Assembly: GCA_964585605.1 (NCBI GenBank)
Contig: CAZPEQ010000001.1
Span: 1 to 26,490, forward strand
Source of the DNA: an uncultured Weeksellaceae bacterium
Lineage (GTDB): Bacteria; Bacteroidota; Bacteroidia; Flavobacteriales_F; PHOS-HE28
DNA: 26,490 bases
Reading direction: 5' to 3'
Program-made: the position numbers and the translations under genes
In this document: piece after piece, positions 8,356 through 15,138 of the stretch
Layout of the letters: the number at the start of each line of letters is the position of its first letter
Position numbering within the stretch: the first letter of the stretch is position 1
The notes under the pieces: generated by a model
What the model was told of the DNA's origin: nothing
Database searches by the model: none
The model's input: only the letters and a program-made list of their open reading frames with translations

Positions 8356-10800
8356 TTAATCTTGCTGGCTTTTTTCAGCTTCGTCTCCTTTCTTCCGCTT
8401 CCGACGGCCGTAACCGTAGCCGTAACCATAGCCATACCCGTAGCCACTGCCGTAACCATAAGCATAGCGGTATCCATAACCGTAGTTGGTATTGTAATAG
8501 TATTTTGATTTCTTGATGCGCACCCCGTTCAGTATAAAGCCAAAGTTCTGCACCGGGTTTTGCTCAAACACTTCTAGGGCATTCTTCAAATGATCCTTGC
8601 TGGCGAAACGCGTATTGAGAACGAACATGGTCGCATCAGCATGTTTCATCATGATCAACGCGTCTGTTATCAAACCTACAGGAGGGGTATCGATGATCAC
8701 GTAATCATACACTCCCACGCCGTACTCGAATATTTCCTCTAAGTGCTTACTCAAAACCAATTCAGACGCATTCGGGGGAGTTGGTCCTGACAACATCACA
8801 TCGAAATTCTCAATATGTGTGTTTTGGATACCACTTTCGATAGAAGCCTTACCGACCAGAATACTGCTTAGCCCTTTTTCAGCCGTCATATTCAACCCTT
8901 TACTCACCTTGGGCTTATGTAAGTCTAACTCAAGCAACAAGACCTTCTTTCCTGCTTTAGCAAGGATGGCACTTAGGTTTACTGAACAGAAGGTTTTTCC
9001 TTCATTCGGTCTATAGGAGGTTACGAGTACCACCTTTCCACGCGACCGATCGGTTGGGATATACTCCAAATTTGTGCGGATCGTCCTGAAGGATTCTGTA
9101 ATGGCGGCCTTGGGGTCACTGTCCACAACAATGTAATTCTGCTCAGCTTTTTCAGAGGCTATCACTTCTCCAAACAACGGCACATTTGACAGTTCTTTCA
9201 ACTGATCGCCATTCTCAATCCGCTCATAGAACATGACCCGAATGAAAATAAAGATGAGTGATAGAAGCAAACCTCCTATTGCAAACGTGTAGATGATTTT
9301 TACGCGATCCGGTCTTACCACACCAACAGAACGTGCAGATTCGATCACTTTCGTCTGTGGAATGATACCTGCTCGTGCAATGACTGTATTCGCACGCTTC
9401 TCAAGTAGAAATAGGTACAACCGCTCATTCACCTGCACCTTACGCTGTATCTCTAAGATATCACGTTGTGATTTAGGCACTCTTCGAATCAGTCCCTCAT
9501 AATCAGATATCTGTCCAATTAAGTCACCGATCTTCGCATTAATGGCAATTCTAGAATTGTTGATATACACCAACAAATTGGTCTTATTAAGATCCAATGT
9601 TTCGTCCAGCACATGAATAGCTGGGTTCTCTTCCTTCGCATCGAACAACAGCCGATTACGCTCCAATTGCATAGCGTACAGGTCATTCAACGTTGTCTTC
9701 AGGAACACGTCGTCGTCGAGGATATAGGCTGAAGGTGGTAACAACTTTTCATCCACGTTATTGGTCAAGTATTCTTCCAACGAATTGAGCGAGGCTATTT
9801 TTAGTTCTTCCCTACGCTTCTCGTTATCAAAACGCACGAGTTCTCCAAAGTACCGGTTCTCCTCTCGGTCTAGGTCGAGGATATCCTCGCTCTCTTTGTA
9901 TGACTGCAATTCATCTTCAAAATCATTCAAGATGATACTGACCTCATCGATCTGTTTGTTGATATAGACCAAGGTATTTTCGTTGATATCGAACTCACTC
10001 TGCAAAGTGTAGTCGATGTAAACCTTGGAGAGCGAATCCAGAAAAGTCTTCGCCCTGCTCGCAAGCTCATCTTCAACGGTAATTTCAAGGATAGTTGTAT
10101 AGTCTATGTTCTCCACAAGCAACCGCTGCTTGAATTTATTCACTAGCCATCCGCGGTTATGCGCGACGAACTGGTAGTCCGCTTTGGACAGCTCTTCCAT
10201 CGTAGAGGGAGAGATCTGCTCGCTTGGGGTCACCCTCAGTTTAAAGTCCCTTTCTACTATGTCTTGGTTAAACGGATAAACTTTATTGATCACGCCATTC
10301 CCTTTGTCATAACTCAACTCGAAATGATTCACATCCTTTATTTTCAGGTCGAATGGCTTCTGGTACAAGCCGCCATTCAGTCGCTCTACTTGAACTTTGA
10401 AGGGCAAGGATGAATTTTTCTCCTCATACATCTCGGTCGTTTTGAACCGACCGATGTTGTAATAAGCCACATCAAAATTCAGTTTGGCCAACGTAGCCCC
10501 GATAAGGTCATGGCTGGTTAGCACCCTTTTTTGGTTAACGATATCGCCATAAGCACCGATATAACCAATGTTCTGATAAACTTGGCTCTGGTAATTATAC
10601 GTATCTCTATCCTTCAACAGAATCTGAGTGCGAGCACCGTAAACCTCAGGAAGTTTATAGGAATACAACAGACTTAGCACAATGGCCAATATGATCGCAA
10701 TGACCACGAAATACCAATTTTTCGAAAAAATCCGAAAAAAGTACCTCAGGTCACCTGCATCTATGATCGCGCCTTTGGAGCGGTTACTTTTCTTTGCCAT
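8356..10800 (-). CDS. wzc: Wzc-type polysaccharide co-polymerase / BY tyrosine kinase (814 aa)
   Basis: Two TM segments (WYFVVIAIILAIVLSLLY; IIYTFAIGGLLLSLIFIFI) flank a coiled-coil periplasmic region. Also ESFRTIRTNL, Walker A TSYRPNEGKT, Walker A' LELDLHKP, Walker B VIIDTPP and a C-terminal Tyr cluster. Start moved to ATG 10800 (MAKKSN) because the track's TTG at 10848 falls inside a -7 promoter box. Confidence 0.93.
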   Translation of the reverse strand: MAKKSNRSKGAIIDAGDLRYFFRIFSKNWYFVVIAIILAIVLSLLYSYKLPEVYGARTQILLKDRDTYNYQSQVYQNIGYIGAYGDIVNQKRVLTSHDLIGATLAKLNFDVAYYNIGRFKTTEMYEEKNSSLPFKVQVERLNGGLYQKPFDLKIKDVNHFELSYDKGNGVINKVYPFNQDIVERDFKLRVTPSEQISPSTMEELSKADYQFVAHNRGWLVNKFKQRLLVENIDYTTILEITVEDELASRAKTFLDSLSKVYIDYTLQSEFDINENTLVYINKQIDEVSIILNDFEDELQSYKESEDILDLDREENRYFGELVRFDNEKRREELKIASLNSLEEYLTNNVDEKLLPPSAYILDDDVFLKTTLNDLYAMQLERNRLLFDAKEENPAIHVLDETLDLNKTNLLVYINNSRIAINAKIGDLIGQISDYEGLIRRVPKSQRDILEIQRKVQVNERLYLFLLEKRANTVIARAGIIPQTKVIESARSVGVVRPDRVKIIYTFAIGGLLLSLIFIFIRVMFYERIENGDQLKELSNVPLFGEVIASEKAEQNYIVVDSDPKAAITESFRTIRTNLEYIPTDRSRGKVVLVTSYRPNEGKTFCSVNLSAILAKAGKKVLLLELDLHKPKVSKGLNMTAEKGLSSILVGKASIESGIQNTHIENFDVMLSGPTPPNASELVLSKHLEEIFEYGVGVYDYVIIDTPPVGLITDALIMMKHADATMFVLNTRFASKDHLKNALEVFEQNPVQNFGFILNGVRIKKSKYYYNTNYGYGYRYAYGYGSGYGYGYGYGYGYGRRKRKKGDEAEKSQQD
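8407..8502 (-). repeat. (Tyr-Gly)n low-complexity tail of Wzc
   Basis: Encodes YYYNTNYGYGYRYAYGYGSGYGYGYGYGYGYG, 15 Tyr in 32 codons. The DNA is an imperfect 6-bp repeat (TAY GGN). Confidence 0.95.
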
Positions 10801-10845: not shown

Positions 10846-10853
10846 CAAATATA
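10846..10853 (-). promoter_or_regulatory. Bacteroidetes -7 box (TATATTTG) for the wzc-wzm-wzt-sulfotransferase operon
   Basis: Plus-strand CAAATATA is an exact TAnnTTTG on the minus strand, 45 bp upstream of ATG 10800. Confidence 0.6.
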
Positions 10854-10943: not shown

Positions 10944-10981
10944 TGTAGAAATTCCAACCTTGCTTCAGCAAAATTTCTACA
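10944..10981. repeat. Perfect 10-bp inverted repeat (TGTAGAAATT-N18-AATTTCTACA); candidate operator
   Basis: Arms at 10944-10953 and 10972-10981. The right arm overlaps the -7 box at 10978-10985. Confidence 0.55.
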
Positions 10982-10985
10982 TTTG
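10978..10985 (+). promoter_or_regulatory. Bacteroidetes -7 box (TACATTTG) for the PID-CTERM/exosortase cassette
   Basis: Exact TAnnTTTG 18 bp upstream of ATG 11004, which supports that start over the track's 10881. Confidence 0.65.
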
Positions 10986-11003: not shown

Positions 11004-11225
11004 ATGAACAGGAAAAGTAAGCTTTTAGCTTTAGTAGCAATGCTAATAGCTCCTGCTACGTACATAGCTACAATGGCCCAAGGAGGCCCTCCTGTAGGAG
11101 GAACACCGCCTTGCTGGCCACCGCCTTGTATACCTATTGATGGGGGATTGGGCTTCTTGCTGGTAGCGGGCGCTGCTTTTGGTGCTAAAAAAGTGATGGA
11201 CCTGAAGAAAGGGTCAACCAAATAG
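11004..11225 (+). CDS. Small secreted protein with a PID-CTERM-type sorting signal (73 aa)
   Basis: MNRKSKLLALVAMLIAPATYIATMA|QGGPPVGGTPPCWPPPCIPIDGG-LGFLLVAGAAFGA-KKVMDLKK: signal peptide, Pro-rich spacer, PIDGG motif, TM helix and basic tail. This is the tripartite PEP-CTERM-like layout, and it lies 8 bp upstream of an exosortase. Confidence 0.85.
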   Translation: MNRKSKLLALVAMLIAPATYIATMAQGGPPVGGTPPCWPPPCIPIDGGLGFLLVAGAAFGAKKVMDLKKGSTK

Positions 11226-11233
11226 GTCTGGAG

Positions 11234-11770
11234 GTGCTCCGTGACCCTCTGTCTAGATTTCTTTTTTACCTAGGAGCGTTCGTGCTCCTCTGGTTTCTAC
11301 TATACAAATTTGTGCTTGACCCGTCGGGTAGATTGGATTTGTGGCTTATTGACAGAATCAAGGCACAATCAGAATGGCTACTTCAGTTTTTAGGTTATCA
11401 GCTACTACCTGAATCATCTAATGTAGAAGGCGACCGCTATATTGGTATACAGGGAGGGCATTACCTGTGGATTGGAAATTCATGCAATGGCCTGAGCATT
11501 TTCGCATACTTCTCTGCTTTTATCTTGGCCTTCCCTGGCAGCTGGAAGCATAAACTGTGGTTCATGCCACTCGGCATTCTCCTTATTCATGGTGTGAACG
11601 TTATTCGAGTGGCCGCGTTGTGCATTGTTGTGAAAGTGGATCCGGATCTGCTGAGTTTAAACCACGACGCCATCTTCTACATCGTCGTATATAGCTTTGT
11701 TATTGGGCTTTGGTTCTGGTGGGTAAAGCAATACGGCAACCTGAAAGCCGAGTTACGCGATGAAACGTAA
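11234..11770 (+). CDS. Exosortase-family protein (Bacteroidetes XrtF/XrtX-like)
   Basis: Multi-TM protein with the exosortase/archaeosortase catalytic pattern: WIGNSCNGL (Cys), VNVIRVAAL (Arg) and NHDAIFY (His). The exact subfamily cannot be assigned without HMMs. Confidence 0.88.
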   Translation: MLRDPLSRFLFYLGAFVLLWFLLYKFVLDPSGRLDLWLIDRIKAQSEWLLQFLGYQLLPESSNVEGDRYIGIQGGHYLWIGNSCNGLSIFAYFSAFILAFPGSWKHKLWFMPLGILLIHGVNVIRVAALCIVVKVDPDLLSLNHDAIFYIVVYSFVIGLWFWWVKQYGNLKAELRDET

Positions 11771-12224
11771 TATTCAATTAGCGGGGTTGTTGATAGCAGG
11801 CTTTTTATTGGGCCACGCTAGGGAGTTTTTAGCGTACAACGTCAATTACCAGATCGATCACGTTTCGCGCAACACCCCTTTTTCGTACGCGCACTCAAAA
11901 TTCCAAGCTGTATTCGGCTCATTGAACATAACTCAACTTACTGGCCTAAAGTGGTTCATCGCTGGAGTCGTGGTTCTGGGTATGCTGTCGTTGACTGTAA
12001 TATTGGGCCGCGTATTGTTCAACGGTGGCAAATACACTAAAATGTTAGTCGCTGGCTATTCGTTGACCGCATTTACCGCTTTATTACTGCACCTACTGAC
12101 CAATTACAATGAAGGGTTCAAAATGGCAGGGGTACAACTACTACACGCCTTGCAATACCCTGTTTTGATGTTCGTGTTGATATTGGCTTCCCCGCTGGCG
12201 AAGTTCAGTCGACCCACAACCTAA
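11760..12224 (+). CDS. Exosortase-associated 4-TM membrane protein
   Basis: Start overlaps the exosortase 3' end by 11 nt. Four hydrophobic segments, including [16 protein letters not shown]. Small membrane partners commonly follow Bacteroidetes exosortases; function unknown. Confidence 0.7.
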
Positions 12225-12247: not shown

Positions 12248-13522
12248 ATGAGCAGAGACACTACGATTTTCAACCTGATCGAGCAGGAACGACATCGTCA
12301 AACGGTTGGCGTAGAGCTAATTGCATCGGAGAACTACGTTTCTGACCAAGTTATGGAAGCCATGGGTTCCGTGTTAACCAACAAATATGCCGAAGGGCTT
12401 CCCAACAAACGCTATTACGGTGGCTGTCAAATAGTTGACCAAGTGGAGCAACTCGCCATTGATCGAATCAAAGAATTGTTCAATGCCGATTGGGCCAATG
12501 TGCAACCTCATAGCGGTGCGCAGGCGAATGCCGCAGTCATGTTAGGTTTCCTTAACCCGGGAGACACCATTTTAGGCTTTGACCTCAGCCATGGCGGACA
12601 CTTAACCCATGGATCTACGGTGAACTTCAGCGGCAAGTTGTATCGGCCAACCTTCTACGGCGTAGAAAAAGACACGGGGTTGATCGACATGGATCGAGTT
12701 GAGGCCATTGCCAAGCAGGAGAATCCGCGGATGATAATTTGCGGAGCTAGTGCCTATTCCAGAGATTGGGATTATGAACGGTTCCGGAGCATTGCCGATG
12801 AAGTGGGAGCCGTATTGTTAGCCGATATCAGTCATCCCGCAGGGTTGATCGCTGGAGGTATTTTGAAAGACCCTCTTCCGCATTGTCATGTGGTCACAAC
12901 CACAACACATAAAACCTTACGCGGGCCTAGAGGAGGCCTGATCATGGTTGGAAAAGATGGGCAGAACAGTTGGGGCATCAAAACGGCAAAGGGTACTGTG
13001 CGCAAGATATCATCGATACTAGACAGTGCCGTTTTTCCTGGGACTCAAGGAGGACCCTTGGAGCATGTAATAGCAGCCAAAGCCGTGGCGTTTGGAGAAG
13101 CGCTAACACCTGCCTACCGCGCCTATTGTGTACGTGTGATCGCCAATGCACAAGCCATGACCAAGGCATTCGTTGCAAAAGGTTATCACGTGATCAGCGG
13201 TGGAACGGATAACCATTGCATGCTGATTGATCTGCGCAATAAAGGAATCACGGGCAAGGAAGCTGAAACTGCACTTGTGGCGGCAGACTTGACCGTTAAC
13301 AAGAACATGGTTCCGTTCGATGACCAGAGTCCTTTTGTGACAAGCGGTATACGTATTGGAACTCCTGCTATAACCACCCGCGGGGTGAATGAAGCGGAGT
13401 GTGAGCAGATCGTAGATATGATCGACCGTGTTGTGGTAGATCATACGAATGAATCTGCAATAGCGGCCATACGGGAGGAAGCGAACCAATTGATGAAGGA
13501 CAAACCCCTGTTCCTGCCTTGA
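12248..13522 (+). CDS. glyA: Serine hydroxymethyltransferase
   Basis: [41 protein letters not shown] and [14 protein letters not shown] (PLP Lys), plus [17 protein letters not shown] and SGIRIGTPA. Confidence 0.98.
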
Positions 13523-13902
13523 GAGACATTGAATCCAGAGAAGACCTCACCCACGTTCTGACCGCATTCTATGCCAGAGCCTTTGAAGATGACCTGATCG
13601 GCCCATTCTTCACGGAGGTGGCGCAACTCGACCTTGACGCACACCTTCCTGTTATCACAGATTTTTGGGAGTCGATACTATTCGGATCCGTCCGTTACCA
13701 AGGCAACGTCATGCACAAGCATTTGGTAATGGATAAAACGAAGATCATGAAGCAGGCCCACTTCGACCGATGGCTAGATCTATTCTCTAATGCGCTAACA
13801 GCGCATCATGCGGGTATGAAAACAGACGAAATGTTGGAGCGCGCAAAACTCATTGCCGTGACAATGGCCTATAAAATCGAAGCTTTTCGGAACACCAACT
13901 GA
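13519..13902 (+). CDS. Group III truncated hemoglobin
   Basis: [38 protein letters not shown] and HFDRWLDLF match the 2/2 hemoglobin group III pattern. TTG start overlaps the glyA stop. Confidence 0.88.
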
Positions 13903-14686
13903 CCAACTGACCCAGTTTTGCCAATGTCCTCTCCGACATCCAAATGGTGTAGCAAGCCATGAAGGCCAAGGCCATATCGGGAATTTCCACTGCATAAGCT
14001 GTTCCCAAATGGAAGCACACCCCAATCAGCAACACGGCGTTCCTGATTGCTTTGAACCAGATCCCGACAACAAAAAACAACTGAAAGCCTAGTGACACAT
14101 AGGTCAGTATGATTGCTAAAGTGGGTAGCTCTTGTAGAAATCCTAAATGAAAGGTAGGATCTGAAGCCAGCACGGAAAGCGCTTTTCCGCTGAGCCAATC
14201 CTCGCCTTGTAGTTTATGCAGGAACGTGCTTAAATAGACAAGCACCAGCTGCAACCGGGCTGCCCATGATGCGAATTGTCTTATTCTTACATGTTCATTT
14301 TGACGAAGGGAAAGTGGAATGCACCACAACAGCATGATCGCTACCAACTGCTGCCCTCCGGTGCTTACCATCCATCCTCTCGCGATCAAAATCACGTAAG
14401 CGCCCCATATCAGAACCGAGGTCCAGACCATTGGTTTCCGCAAGGCCGAATACCCAGCAGCAGCAATACCACAAAACGGCAGGGCAATCCAAAATCCCAA
14501 AGGCATGCTGTAAGCGAGATCCACCAGCCACGAAATCGGCCCTCCTGAAAACTGTAAGCGCGGTGAAACGGGATCAAACCACAGTTTACCCGAAACGGTC
14601 AAACAATAACTCAAGAACAACGCGGTCCACAAATGCAAGGCCCTAACGAAGAGTTTCTGTGCCTGTATGCTTACCTGAGGAATCAT
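13850..14686 (-). CDS. HTTM-domain membrane protein (SdpB / vitamin K-dependent carboxylase TM-domain homolog)
   Basis: About seven hydrophobic segments. RLQLVLVYLSTFLHKLQGEDWLSGKAL and GVCFHLG follow the HTTM Q...Y......K...W..G and FH pattern. Start overlaps the upstream stop (ATGA). Confidence 0.82.
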   Translation of the reverse strand: MIPQVSIQAQKLFVRALHLWTALFLSYCLTVSGKLWFDPVSPRLQFSGGPISWLVDLAYSMPLGFWIALPFCGIAAAGYSALRKPMVWTSVLIWGAYVILIARGWMVSTGGQQLVAIMLLWCIPLSLRQNEHVRIRQFASWAARLQLVLVYLSTFLHKLQGEDWLSGKALSVLASDPTFHLGFLQELPTLAIILTYVSLGFQLFFVVGIWFKAIRNAVLLIGVCFHLGTAYAVEIPDMALAFMACYTIWMSERTLAKLGQLVSWCSEKLRFYRPLSRQ

Positions 14687-15138
14687 TCCTGATCGAGCGC
14701 ATCAATCCAAAGAACACGCTGACCATCTATTTCATCAAAACAGGTCCTGCGCACGTGAACTTCAGGTCTCTCCTGCTCTGTTAAGGCACGTATGTAATCT
14801 TGAAACCCTGGCCACGCCTTAAGATCAGCTTCTCCTTTGGCAGAGTCACGATAATTAGACATGCTTCTGCACCCCCATTTTACAATACGCCTGCCCAGCA
14901 GATTCTCTCCTTCTGCAAGATCTCGGGTAACACCTTCCTCATCTGTAATCGTCAAAGTGCATCCACATGGCGGAACATCTGGCGCAAATAAATTCCATTG
15001 CTGATGAAATAAGGGTCGTGTATAGCTTGTTGACCAGAACTGTAGCCGTGCAGGAATCAATTCTTGTGGCAAGGCATAACACGCTAAGATCAGCGTATGT
15101 ACCAATGCCAAGATGAACGGCCAATTCTTCTTCCACAT
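14683..15138 (-). CDS. DUF5819-like / SdpA-like small membrane-anchored protein
   Basis: N-terminal hydrophobic segment then YTRPLFHQQWNLFAPDVP. The QxWxLFAP motif is recalled for small partners that precede HTTM genes. Translationally coupled to the HTTM gene. Confidence 0.72.
   Translation of the reverse strand: MWKKNWPFILALVHTLILACYALPQELIPARLQFWSTSYTRPLFHQQWNLFAPDVPPCGCTLTITDEEGVTRDLAEGENLLGRRIVKWGCRSMSNYRDSAKGEADLKAWPGFQDYIRALTEQERPEVHVRRTCFDEIDGQRVLWIDALDQE

Follow-up and report, generated by a model that had tools for sequence, protein, structure and literature searches.

A divergent exosortase X/PID-CTERM cassette with a peptide-sized candidate substrate facing a Wzc-type export operon in an uncultured Weeksellaceae bacterium

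The closest described relative of the locus reported here is the PID-CTERM/exosortase X (XrtX) system of NCBIfam, a triplet of a PID-CTERM protein, an exosortase and an associated membrane protein that is covered by the models NF046080, NF046081 and NF046082 and by Pfam PF28310. We analysed a stretch of 26,490 nucleotides from an uncultured Weeksellaceae bacterium (GenBank assembly GCA_964585605.1, contig CAZPEQ010000001.1, positions 1 to 26,490 of the forward strand; hereafter the window), in which three genes at 11004-12224 almost certainly form an XrtX/PID-CTERM cassette, the same three families (the third by a weak match) standing in the same order with the sorting signal and the catalytic residues intact. 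Compared with the curated system, the cassette of the window is flanked by wzc and glyA. An earlier reading of the window, made by a model from the sequence only, had proposed a Bacteroidota analogue of the PEP-CTERM/EpsH system, and the parts that it named (a Bacteroidota exosortase, a PID-CTERM substrate and a partner with about four transmembrane (TM) segments) are all there, but the triplet is already curated as the XrtX system and is not a new analogue. The PID-CTERM/XrtX system exists only as database models; we found no paper mentioning PID-CTERM in the literature searched, and the few hits for “XrtX” or “exosortase X” concern other things.

A second relative is XrtF of Flavobacterium johnsoniae with its partner Fjoh_1449 (TIGR04128 and TIGR04127), likewise a small Bacteroidota exosortase whose gene overlaps the next one, which encodes a membrane protein of about 140-150 amino acids (aa). 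The partner families of XrtF and XrtX are homologous and the exosortase of the window also scores above the XrtF cut-off (92.8 bits against 90), but no sorting signal and no substrate are known for XrtF, and XrtF loci are without a miniprotein gene upstream. In-frame deletions of xrtF or of its partner gene in F. johnsoniae give the same phenotype, with sand colonisation down, biofilm much reduced and zorbs lost (PMC10936215), and the statement in the sequence-only reading that Bacteroidota exosortases are defined mainly by bioinformatics thus holds for XrtX/PID-CTERM but not for xrtF.

The PEP-CTERM/XrtA (EpsH) system belongs to the same superfamily (PF09721, TIGR04178) and has the same Cys, Arg and His residues and a tripartite C-terminal signal. 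PEP-CTERM genomes encode tens of diverse substrates, whereas one miniprotein was seen here; the signature is PEP in PEP-CTERM and PID in the window, and XrtA has about eight TM segments and more than 280 aa compared with 178 aa and about five helices for the XrtX of the window. XrtA is typically found within exopolysaccharide (EPS) loci, including chain-length determinant and tyrosine-kinase genes (PMC1569441). Archaeosortase A (ArtA), which acts with PGF-CTERM in Haloferax volcanii, is a homologous enzyme and the model for the mechanism proposed below; it is the sole family member with experimental support for C-terminal cleavage coupled to lipid attachment (10.1101/2023.06.07.544157), but it is archaeal and its substrate is a large surface-layer glycoprotein.

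Within the curated family the window represents, by its sequence, a divergent and mainly Flavobacteriales branch (type A, defined below), because the curated models fit the type C loci best: Hymenobacter XrtX scores 233 bits and its partner 153, compared with 174.5 (cut-off 170) and 20 for those of the window, and the miniprotein of the window has a Cys pair (CWPPPC) that Hymenobacter-type members are without. The window itself is mostly a matter of annotation, two of the three genes already carrying curated names and the third being a divergent member. What is added here is a peptide-sized candidate for a dedicated substrate with a lineage-specific Cys pair, the under-detection of the type A branch by the curated partner model, a wzc adjacency that is real, lineage-restricted and confounded by synteny, and a family of proteins with tails for secretion by the type IX system (T9SS) as a family-wide neighbour of XrtX.

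The cassette consists, all on the + strand, of the gene for a 73-aa PID-CTERM miniprotein (11004..11225, ATG start; NF046080 and PF28310), the gene for a 178-aa XrtX (11234..11770, GTG start; NF046081 and TIGR04178) and the gene for a 154-aa XrtX-associated membrane protein (11760..12224, ATG start; NF046082 weakly, and an iterative hidden Markov model (HMM)), called the partner below. A gap of 8 bp separates the miniprotein gene from xrtX, and xrtX overlaps the partner gene by 11 nt; the coordinates bear out the tight linkage that the sequence-only reading had described. The long GTG start of xrtX was preferred because the NF046081 alignment begins at residue 5, a P-x-x-R-F motif near the N-terminus is kept in homologues and the gene call of the Joint Genome Institute (JGI) also gives 178 aa, while a start giving 162 aa was picked by one other gene caller. 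A JGI contig from an algal-surface metagenome matches the window.

Exosortase HMMs, with which the sequence-only reading had proposed to settle the subfamily, assigned the enzyme to XrtX: it was above cut-off on the Exosortase X model NF046081 (174.5 bits, residues 5-170 aligned to 3-165 of 168). Its place in the superfamily is given by TIGR04178 (54.7 bits, cut-off 23) and PF09721 (32.8 bits, cut-off 25.7), and it stays below the cut-off of the EpsH/XrtA model TIGR02602 (15.8 bits against 105.55). The XrtF score is well under the XrtX score and the partner gave no match to TIGR04127 at E <= 0.1, and the locus was not assigned to the XrtF system. Only C84, N122, R125, L129 and H144 are invariant in a 31-homologue alignment. 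Cys, Arg and His make up the proposed exosortase catalytic triad (PMC1569441; bioRxiv 10.1101/2023.06.07.544157), to which Cys84 (codon 11483-11485), Arg125 (11606-11608) and His144 (11663-11665) correspond, and the catalytic set is therefore intact, as had been read from the sequence before. An AlphaFold2 (AF2) model of XrtX with a predicted local distance difference test (pLDDT) score of 93.7 is an all-helical membrane protein of about five helices, and searches of the PDB by sequence and by fold gave no solved exosortase relative. Searching protein representatives with XrtX returned 1506 matches, the best of them 43% identical; a single-protein XrtX search of genome contigs returned no related locus.

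The miniprotein has the tripartite C-terminal signal and the N-terminal hydrophobic signal of PID-CTERM proteins. Residues 1-25 form a predicted signal peptide, cut between ATMA and Q, and are followed by a Gly/Pro-rich mature stretch of 18 residues (Q26-I43, QGGPPVGGTPPCWPPPCI) that holds Cys37-x4-Cys42 (CWPPPC); the signature P44-I45-D46-G47-G48, which begins at 11133, is followed by a TM helix (LGFLLVAGAAFGA, about residues 49-61) and a Lys-rich tail (KKVMDLKKGSTK, residues 62-73). NF046080 (PID_CTERM) matches residues 44-64 with 38.3 bits against a cut-off of 26, and the JGI annotation of the gene is PF28310 PID_CTERM. To judge from its sequence the adjacent candidate substrate is a miniprotein, not a surface protein, and the earlier proposal that sorted proteins anchor or carry the exported glycan does not agree with an encoded product of about 18 mature residues. 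Two other views of the miniprotein were rejected, that of a lipoprotein signal because its signal region has no Cys and that of a RiPP (ribosomally synthesised and post-translationally modified peptide) because there are no modifying enzymes in or near the cassette.

Related loci (numbered with the prefix L) were collected from genomes, one per species, with a degenerate DNA pattern over XrtX C84..H144, which yielded 120 blocks of 8 kb, 116 of them with an exosortase homologue; as the match falls at an arbitrary position in its block the flanks are uneven, and the absence of a neighbour is weak evidence. Of the 116 blocks, 38 have an open reading frame (ORF) of 65-90 aa and of the same design directly 5' of the exosortase, and three more have one at another place in the block; these 41 all begin with a signal peptide, which is followed by a short G/P spacer, then P[IVL]DGG, a TM helix and finally a basic tail. 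Three subtypes could be told apart. Type A, with CW[PEQD]P[PEN]C right before P[IV]DGG, comprises 18 genome loci and the window and is found mainly in Flavobacteriales (for example Crocinitomix, Putridiphycobacter, Salibacteraceae, Vicingaceae); type B, with CGGPF..C, comprises seven genome loci mainly from Flavobacteriales and unclassified Bacteroidota metagenome-assembled genomes (MAGs); and type C, without a Cys pair, comprises 16 genome loci mainly from Hymenobacter, Pontibacter, Marinoscillum and Bacteroidales. The exosortases of relatives from all three subtypes scored 177-233 bits on NF046081. A metagenome search with the miniprotein gave 21 further loci, all with miniproteins of 51-97 aa, in which XrtX and the partner come after the miniprotein wherever the contig continues. 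Gln stands at the predicted +1 position in about 24 of 39 miniproteins, which fits the Q-rule and pyroglutamate formation of Bacteroidetes (PMC5837995, PMC10653852).

The partner gene comes right after xrtX, and its product has four long hydrophobic helices and one short one, as seen by hydropathy and in a low-confidence single-sequence AF2 model (pLDDT 67.7). By sequence it is best taken as a divergent member of its family, one that falls below the cut-off of the curated model, the partners of type A relatives also reaching only 23-47 bits on NF046082. An HMM iterated from the partner of the window matched the ORF directly after the exosortase in 55 loci, 24 of them among the 39 miniprotein-bearing loci (the window counted) and 31 of XrtF type. 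Because one Pontibacter partner matches both NF046082 and TIGR04127, the XrtX-associated and XrtF-associated partner families belong to one superfamily. A partner was next to XrtX in 15 of 16 assessable type A loci and in 1 of 5 of type B, and the partner is thus not universally adjacent to XrtX. The sequence-only reading had suggested that the partner may be a required subunit; the like phenotypes of the xrtF and partner deletions in F. johnsoniae favour this by analogy, but one XrtX subtype is without an adjacent partner.

On balance we favour the view that the adjacent miniprotein is the substrate of XrtX, perhaps a dedicated one and the only one, and that it is processed in the following way. 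The 73-aa miniprotein would be exported by Sec and cut by signal peptidase I after Ala25, exposing Gln26, which would probably be cyclised to pyroglutamate (Q-rule), and the C-terminal helix and the Lys-rich tail would then keep the product anchored in the inner membrane. XrtX, as a small polytopic cysteine protease/transpeptidase that probably acts with the four-helix partner, would then use Cys84 to cut at or near P-I-D-G-G on the outer face of the inner membrane. A Gly/Pro-rich peptide of about 2 kDa, in which CWPPPC probably forms a disulphide loop, would be passed to an acceptor in the envelope. The most likely place of action of the product would be the cell surface, in concert with polysaccharide and/or a protein secreted by T9SS, as the 203-bp divergent promoter region shared with a Wzc-Wzm-Wzt-sulfotransferase operon leads us to propose.

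Several points weigh against this view of the cassette. Export, retention by the tail, cleavage and transfer to an acceptor, like the role of the partner, are modelled on ArtA and XrtA, and the signal-peptide cleavage site of the miniprotein is a rule-based prediction. The match of the partner to NF046082 runs over the full length (1-143 of 147) but is weak (20 bits, E = 4e-4, cut-off 75), and in the CGGPFPPC subtype (L005, L008, L074, L089) the exosortase is followed by opposite-strand genes instead of a partner. Finally, the survey covered 8-20 kb round each exosortase, and larger PID-CTERM proteins may be encoded elsewhere in the genomes. This small inspected part of each genome is also what leaves room for a different role of the miniprotein, as a regulatory or structural subunit of XrtX (a pseudo-substrate or assembly factor) or as a precursor from which a peptide is released; the real substrates would then be larger PID-CTERM proteins encoded elsewhere. 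The mature part of only about 18 residues, of low complexity, would suit such a role, and NCBIfam models PID-CTERM as a “domain”, which could in principle sit on any protein. We nevertheless consider it unlikely, since no large PID-CTERM protein was found near XrtX and each of the 62 PID-type ORFs from genomes and metagenomes, whether found near XrtX or through a motif search, encodes a miniprotein (51-97 aa), since these combine a complete tripartite signal with a Sec signal peptide and so have the build of a substrate, and since the strict conservation of the Cys pair by the cleavage motif points to selection on the peptide itself.

The cassette is divergent from wzc, as the sequence-only reading had stated, with 203 bp between the wzc ATG (10800, - strand) and the miniprotein ATG. 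Within this interval a -7 box of the Bacteroidota type TAnnTTTG lies at 10978..10985 (+; TAcaTTTG), its first base 26 nt 5' of the miniprotein ATG, and a second one at 10846..10853 (-; TAtaTTTG) lies 53 nt 5' of the wzc ATG. With 11 matches in the window against 16.3 expected, TAnnTTTG is no commoner than chance, and a match to it means little by itself; the box of the wzc operon is a pattern match of this kind. The cassette box also has a conserved position. The 100 nt 5' of the miniprotein gene in 38 related loci hold 18 TAnnTTTG matches against about 1.9 expected, and 11 of the 18, that of the window included, start 25-37 nt before the miniprotein ATG against about 0.25 expected. As its position is kept across related loci, the sequence data support the cassette box as a real promoter; it is not present in loci where a same-strand gene precedes the miniprotein gene. 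The earlier description of the cassette as lying under one -7 box agrees with this box but leaves out another TAnnTTTG match (TAGCTTTG) within xrtX (11692-11699, +), 61 nt 5' of the partner ATG, which could be an internal promoter or due to chance. Scans of the window for sigma-70 promoters and terminators gave nothing exceeding shuffled controls.

The first gene of the divergent operon (8356..10800, -) encodes an 815-aa Wzc-like polysaccharide co-polymerase/tyrosine autokinase, with 173.7 bits on TIGR01007 (cut-off 108) and the Pfam domains Wzz, GNVR and AAA_31. Following it on the same strand, by Pfam assignment, are genes for a Wzm ABC-2 permease of an ATP-binding cassette (ABC) transporter (7467-8342), a Wzt ABC ATPase (6211-7470) and two sulfotransferase-family proteins (5438-6268 and 4509-5435), the second with a PRSGTT motif for binding 3'-phosphoadenosine 5'-phosphosulfate (PAPS), and the region 861-10800 also holds genes for a family 2 glycosyltransferase (GT2), a formyltransferase, a DegT aminotransferase and a WbqC protein. 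From these gene assignments it is reasonable to regard this as a sulfated-glycan export operon; there is no gene of the Wza type for outer-membrane export anywhere in the 26.5-kb window. The Wzc C-terminus (8356-8500, -) has an unusually regular Tyr-Gly repeat, (YG)n (YGYGYRYAYGYGSGYGYGYGYGYGYG), followed by a Lys/Arg-rich tail.

Scoring the wzc/wzm/wzt neighbourhood across genomes, a further check put forward in the sequence-only reading, showed that the head-to-head wzc recurs. A Wzc gene is in the same 8-kb block in 13 of 18 type A, 3 of 7 type B and 1 of 16 type C loci and in 3 of 75 loci with no miniprotein gene, and the comparison of types A and B with the rest (16/25 against 4/91) gives a Fisher p = 4e-10 when the loci are treated as independent, which they are not. 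In metagenomes it was found in 8 of the 12 loci having at least 1.5 kb upstream, mostly head-to-head at 80-300 bp from the miniprotein gene and often with Wzm/Wzt beyond. Among the 18 type A loci, 12 have the housekeeping gene glyA downstream of the cassette, and because it is conserved about as well the wzc adjacency may be inherited gene order, which is a sufficient explanation of it. The linkage to glycan loci that had been proposed therefore stands for a mostly Flavobacteriales group but not for the whole family, as it does not extend to the type C XrtX loci of Hymenobacter, Pontibacter and Bacteroidales.

These counts bear directly on the tentative idea, in essence that of the sequence-only reading, of a Bacteroidota counterpart to PEP-CTERM/XrtA in which the XrtX product is attached to the exported sulfated polysaccharide, anchors it, or starts or ends its chains. 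The cassette of the window does lie, like XrtA, within an exopolysaccharide locus, with inherited synteny as a caveat, and wzc abuts it at 203 bp with two -7 boxes between them. Besides the enrichment of Wzc in blocks of the Cys-pair subtypes and its presence in the metagenome loci, the wzc link is kept despite a 3-kb gene inserted between wzc and the miniprotein gene and also in type B loci without glyA, and Wzm/Wzt recur near the cassette in six loci (L023, L089, L114, L126, L143, L145). XrtA is itself typically embedded in EPS loci (PMC1569441), and an aminoacyl-sugar (amino-acid-modified sugar) has been proposed as the acceptor for exosortases (PMC7468200); the facing operon could supply such a glycan. 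Such a coupling to the glycan is nonetheless possible rather than likely, given that glyA is kept as often, that downstream synteny (HTTM, FAH, relA, fur, purA) is kept in L133 and L039, that Wzc is all but missing from type C loci and that no segment recognisable as one for glycosylation, Ser/Thr-rich or otherwise, is present in the miniprotein.

As a separate observation on this operon, three loci (L126, L143, L145) have two conserved small genes, of about 177 and 165 aa, between wzc and wzm/wzt (2.5-4.5 kb 5' of the miniprotein gene, - strand), the product of about 165 aa resembling a NusG/UpxY-type antiterminator by eye only; the window is without these genes, and wzm comes directly after wzc.

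Across the XrtX family the commonest neighbour is not Wzc but a T9SS-tailed cargo protein. This family has members of 800-1500 aa with a T9SS type A tail (TIGR04183, 33.8-37.8 bits, cut-off 23) that are mutually homologous (E 1e-18 to 1e-44), and its conserved core matches no other family model. In 20 of the 41 blocks such a gene directly precedes the miniprotein gene on the same strand, namely in 9 of 18 of type A, 5 of 7 of type B and 6 of 16 of type C (L005, L008, L019, L020, L022, L023, L028, L053, L058, L074, L084, L089, L092, L104, L106, L109, L113, L115, L121 and L122), and likewise in 6 of the 21 metagenome loci (L125, L129, L131, L133, L134, L140). It ends about 250-580 bp before the exosortase start and stays by the miniprotein gene even where the latter is displaced from XrtX (L058, L084). 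The 26.5-kb window has no member of the family, and neither have the blocks of the three loci closest to it (L021, L025, L039).

This neighbour raises the alternative that the peptide or XrtX helps to attach or mature a large T9SS type A cargo, the cargo gene having moved away in the lineage of the window and wzc being accidental. Its occurrence next to the miniprotein gene in all three subtypes and in metagenome loci, and its staying with that gene in L058 and L084, speak for such a link, as does the finding that F. johnsoniae mutants in xrtF, its partner, porU, porZ and the DegT gene Fjoh_0334 fall into one phenotype class (PMC10936215, Table 2); by analogy this shared class is compatible with a common surface-attachment pathway, without proving one. 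We regard a coupling to T9SS as rather doubtful, however, because the family is in neither the window nor the L021, L025 and L039 blocks, because PorU processes the cargo of T9SS at the outer membrane (PMC7468200) while exosortases are in the inner membrane, and because no connecting mechanism is known. Coupling to the glycan and coupling to T9SS are not mutually exclusive.

Gene neighbours of XrtF-type loci without a miniprotein were also noted: in Cyclobacteriaceae and other Cytophagales a DegT aminotransferase gene comes directly after the partner gene in 11 of 75 blocks, for example in L006, L011, L050, L056, L068, L078 and L119, at about +800 to +2000 from the exosortase start. T9SS-tailed members lie 5-7 kb downstream in L011, L050, L078 and L105.

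A further-reaching reading, in which an N-terminally blocked, disulphide-looped and Pro/Gly-rich peptide of about 2 kDa would be joined C-terminally, by transpeptidation, to a sugar or lipid from the pathway of the surface polysaccharide and so link the glycan and/or a large T9SS-secreted protein to the cell, is a speculation to which we give little credence. If true, exosortases, Wzc-type export and T9SS attachment would belong to a single Bacteroidota pathway. Exosortases are widespread and their bacterial acceptor molecule has long been sought, and XrtX offers an unusually simple system of one enzyme, one partner and one candidate substrate of peptide size, which lends itself to tagging and to mass spectrometry, so that finding what the peptide is joined to could reveal the acceptor and any dependence on it of capsule export or T9SS attachment.

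Downstream of the cassette, glyA (serine hydroxymethyltransferase; 12248..13522, +; NF000586, 605 bits) starts 23 bp after the partner gene, with housekeeping genes beyond, and there is no terminator-like site between 12224 and 12248; by its position glyA may be co-transcribed with the cassette or may simply reflect conserved synteny. A search of RNA runs did not find the sequence. In most type A loci glyA stands within a few tens of bp of the partner gene, as seen in L019, L032, L039, L047, L067, L104, L107, L116, L121, L126, L128, L139, L141, L143 and L145. An ORF of 127 aa at 13519-13902 (+), which has a 4-nt overlap with the glyA stop and no Pfam match, was recognised as a gene in each of three independent assemblies (L001, L002, L003). 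A gene pair at 13850-15138 (-) codes for a membrane protein of 278 aa with an HTTM domain and for a protein of 151 aa with a weak likeness to DUF5819; the same pair is kept near the cassette in L039, L131 and L133. Two typical Bacteroidota XrtX cassettes were found on MAG contigs labelled as Proteobacteria, L067 (CALRIU020000002.1; Hydrocarboniphaga daqingensis) and L113 (JBPBPH010000087.1; Janthinobacterium lividum); the glyA of L067 is Flavobacteriales-like and 73% identical to that of the window, and both contigs are probably mis-binned or mislabelled.

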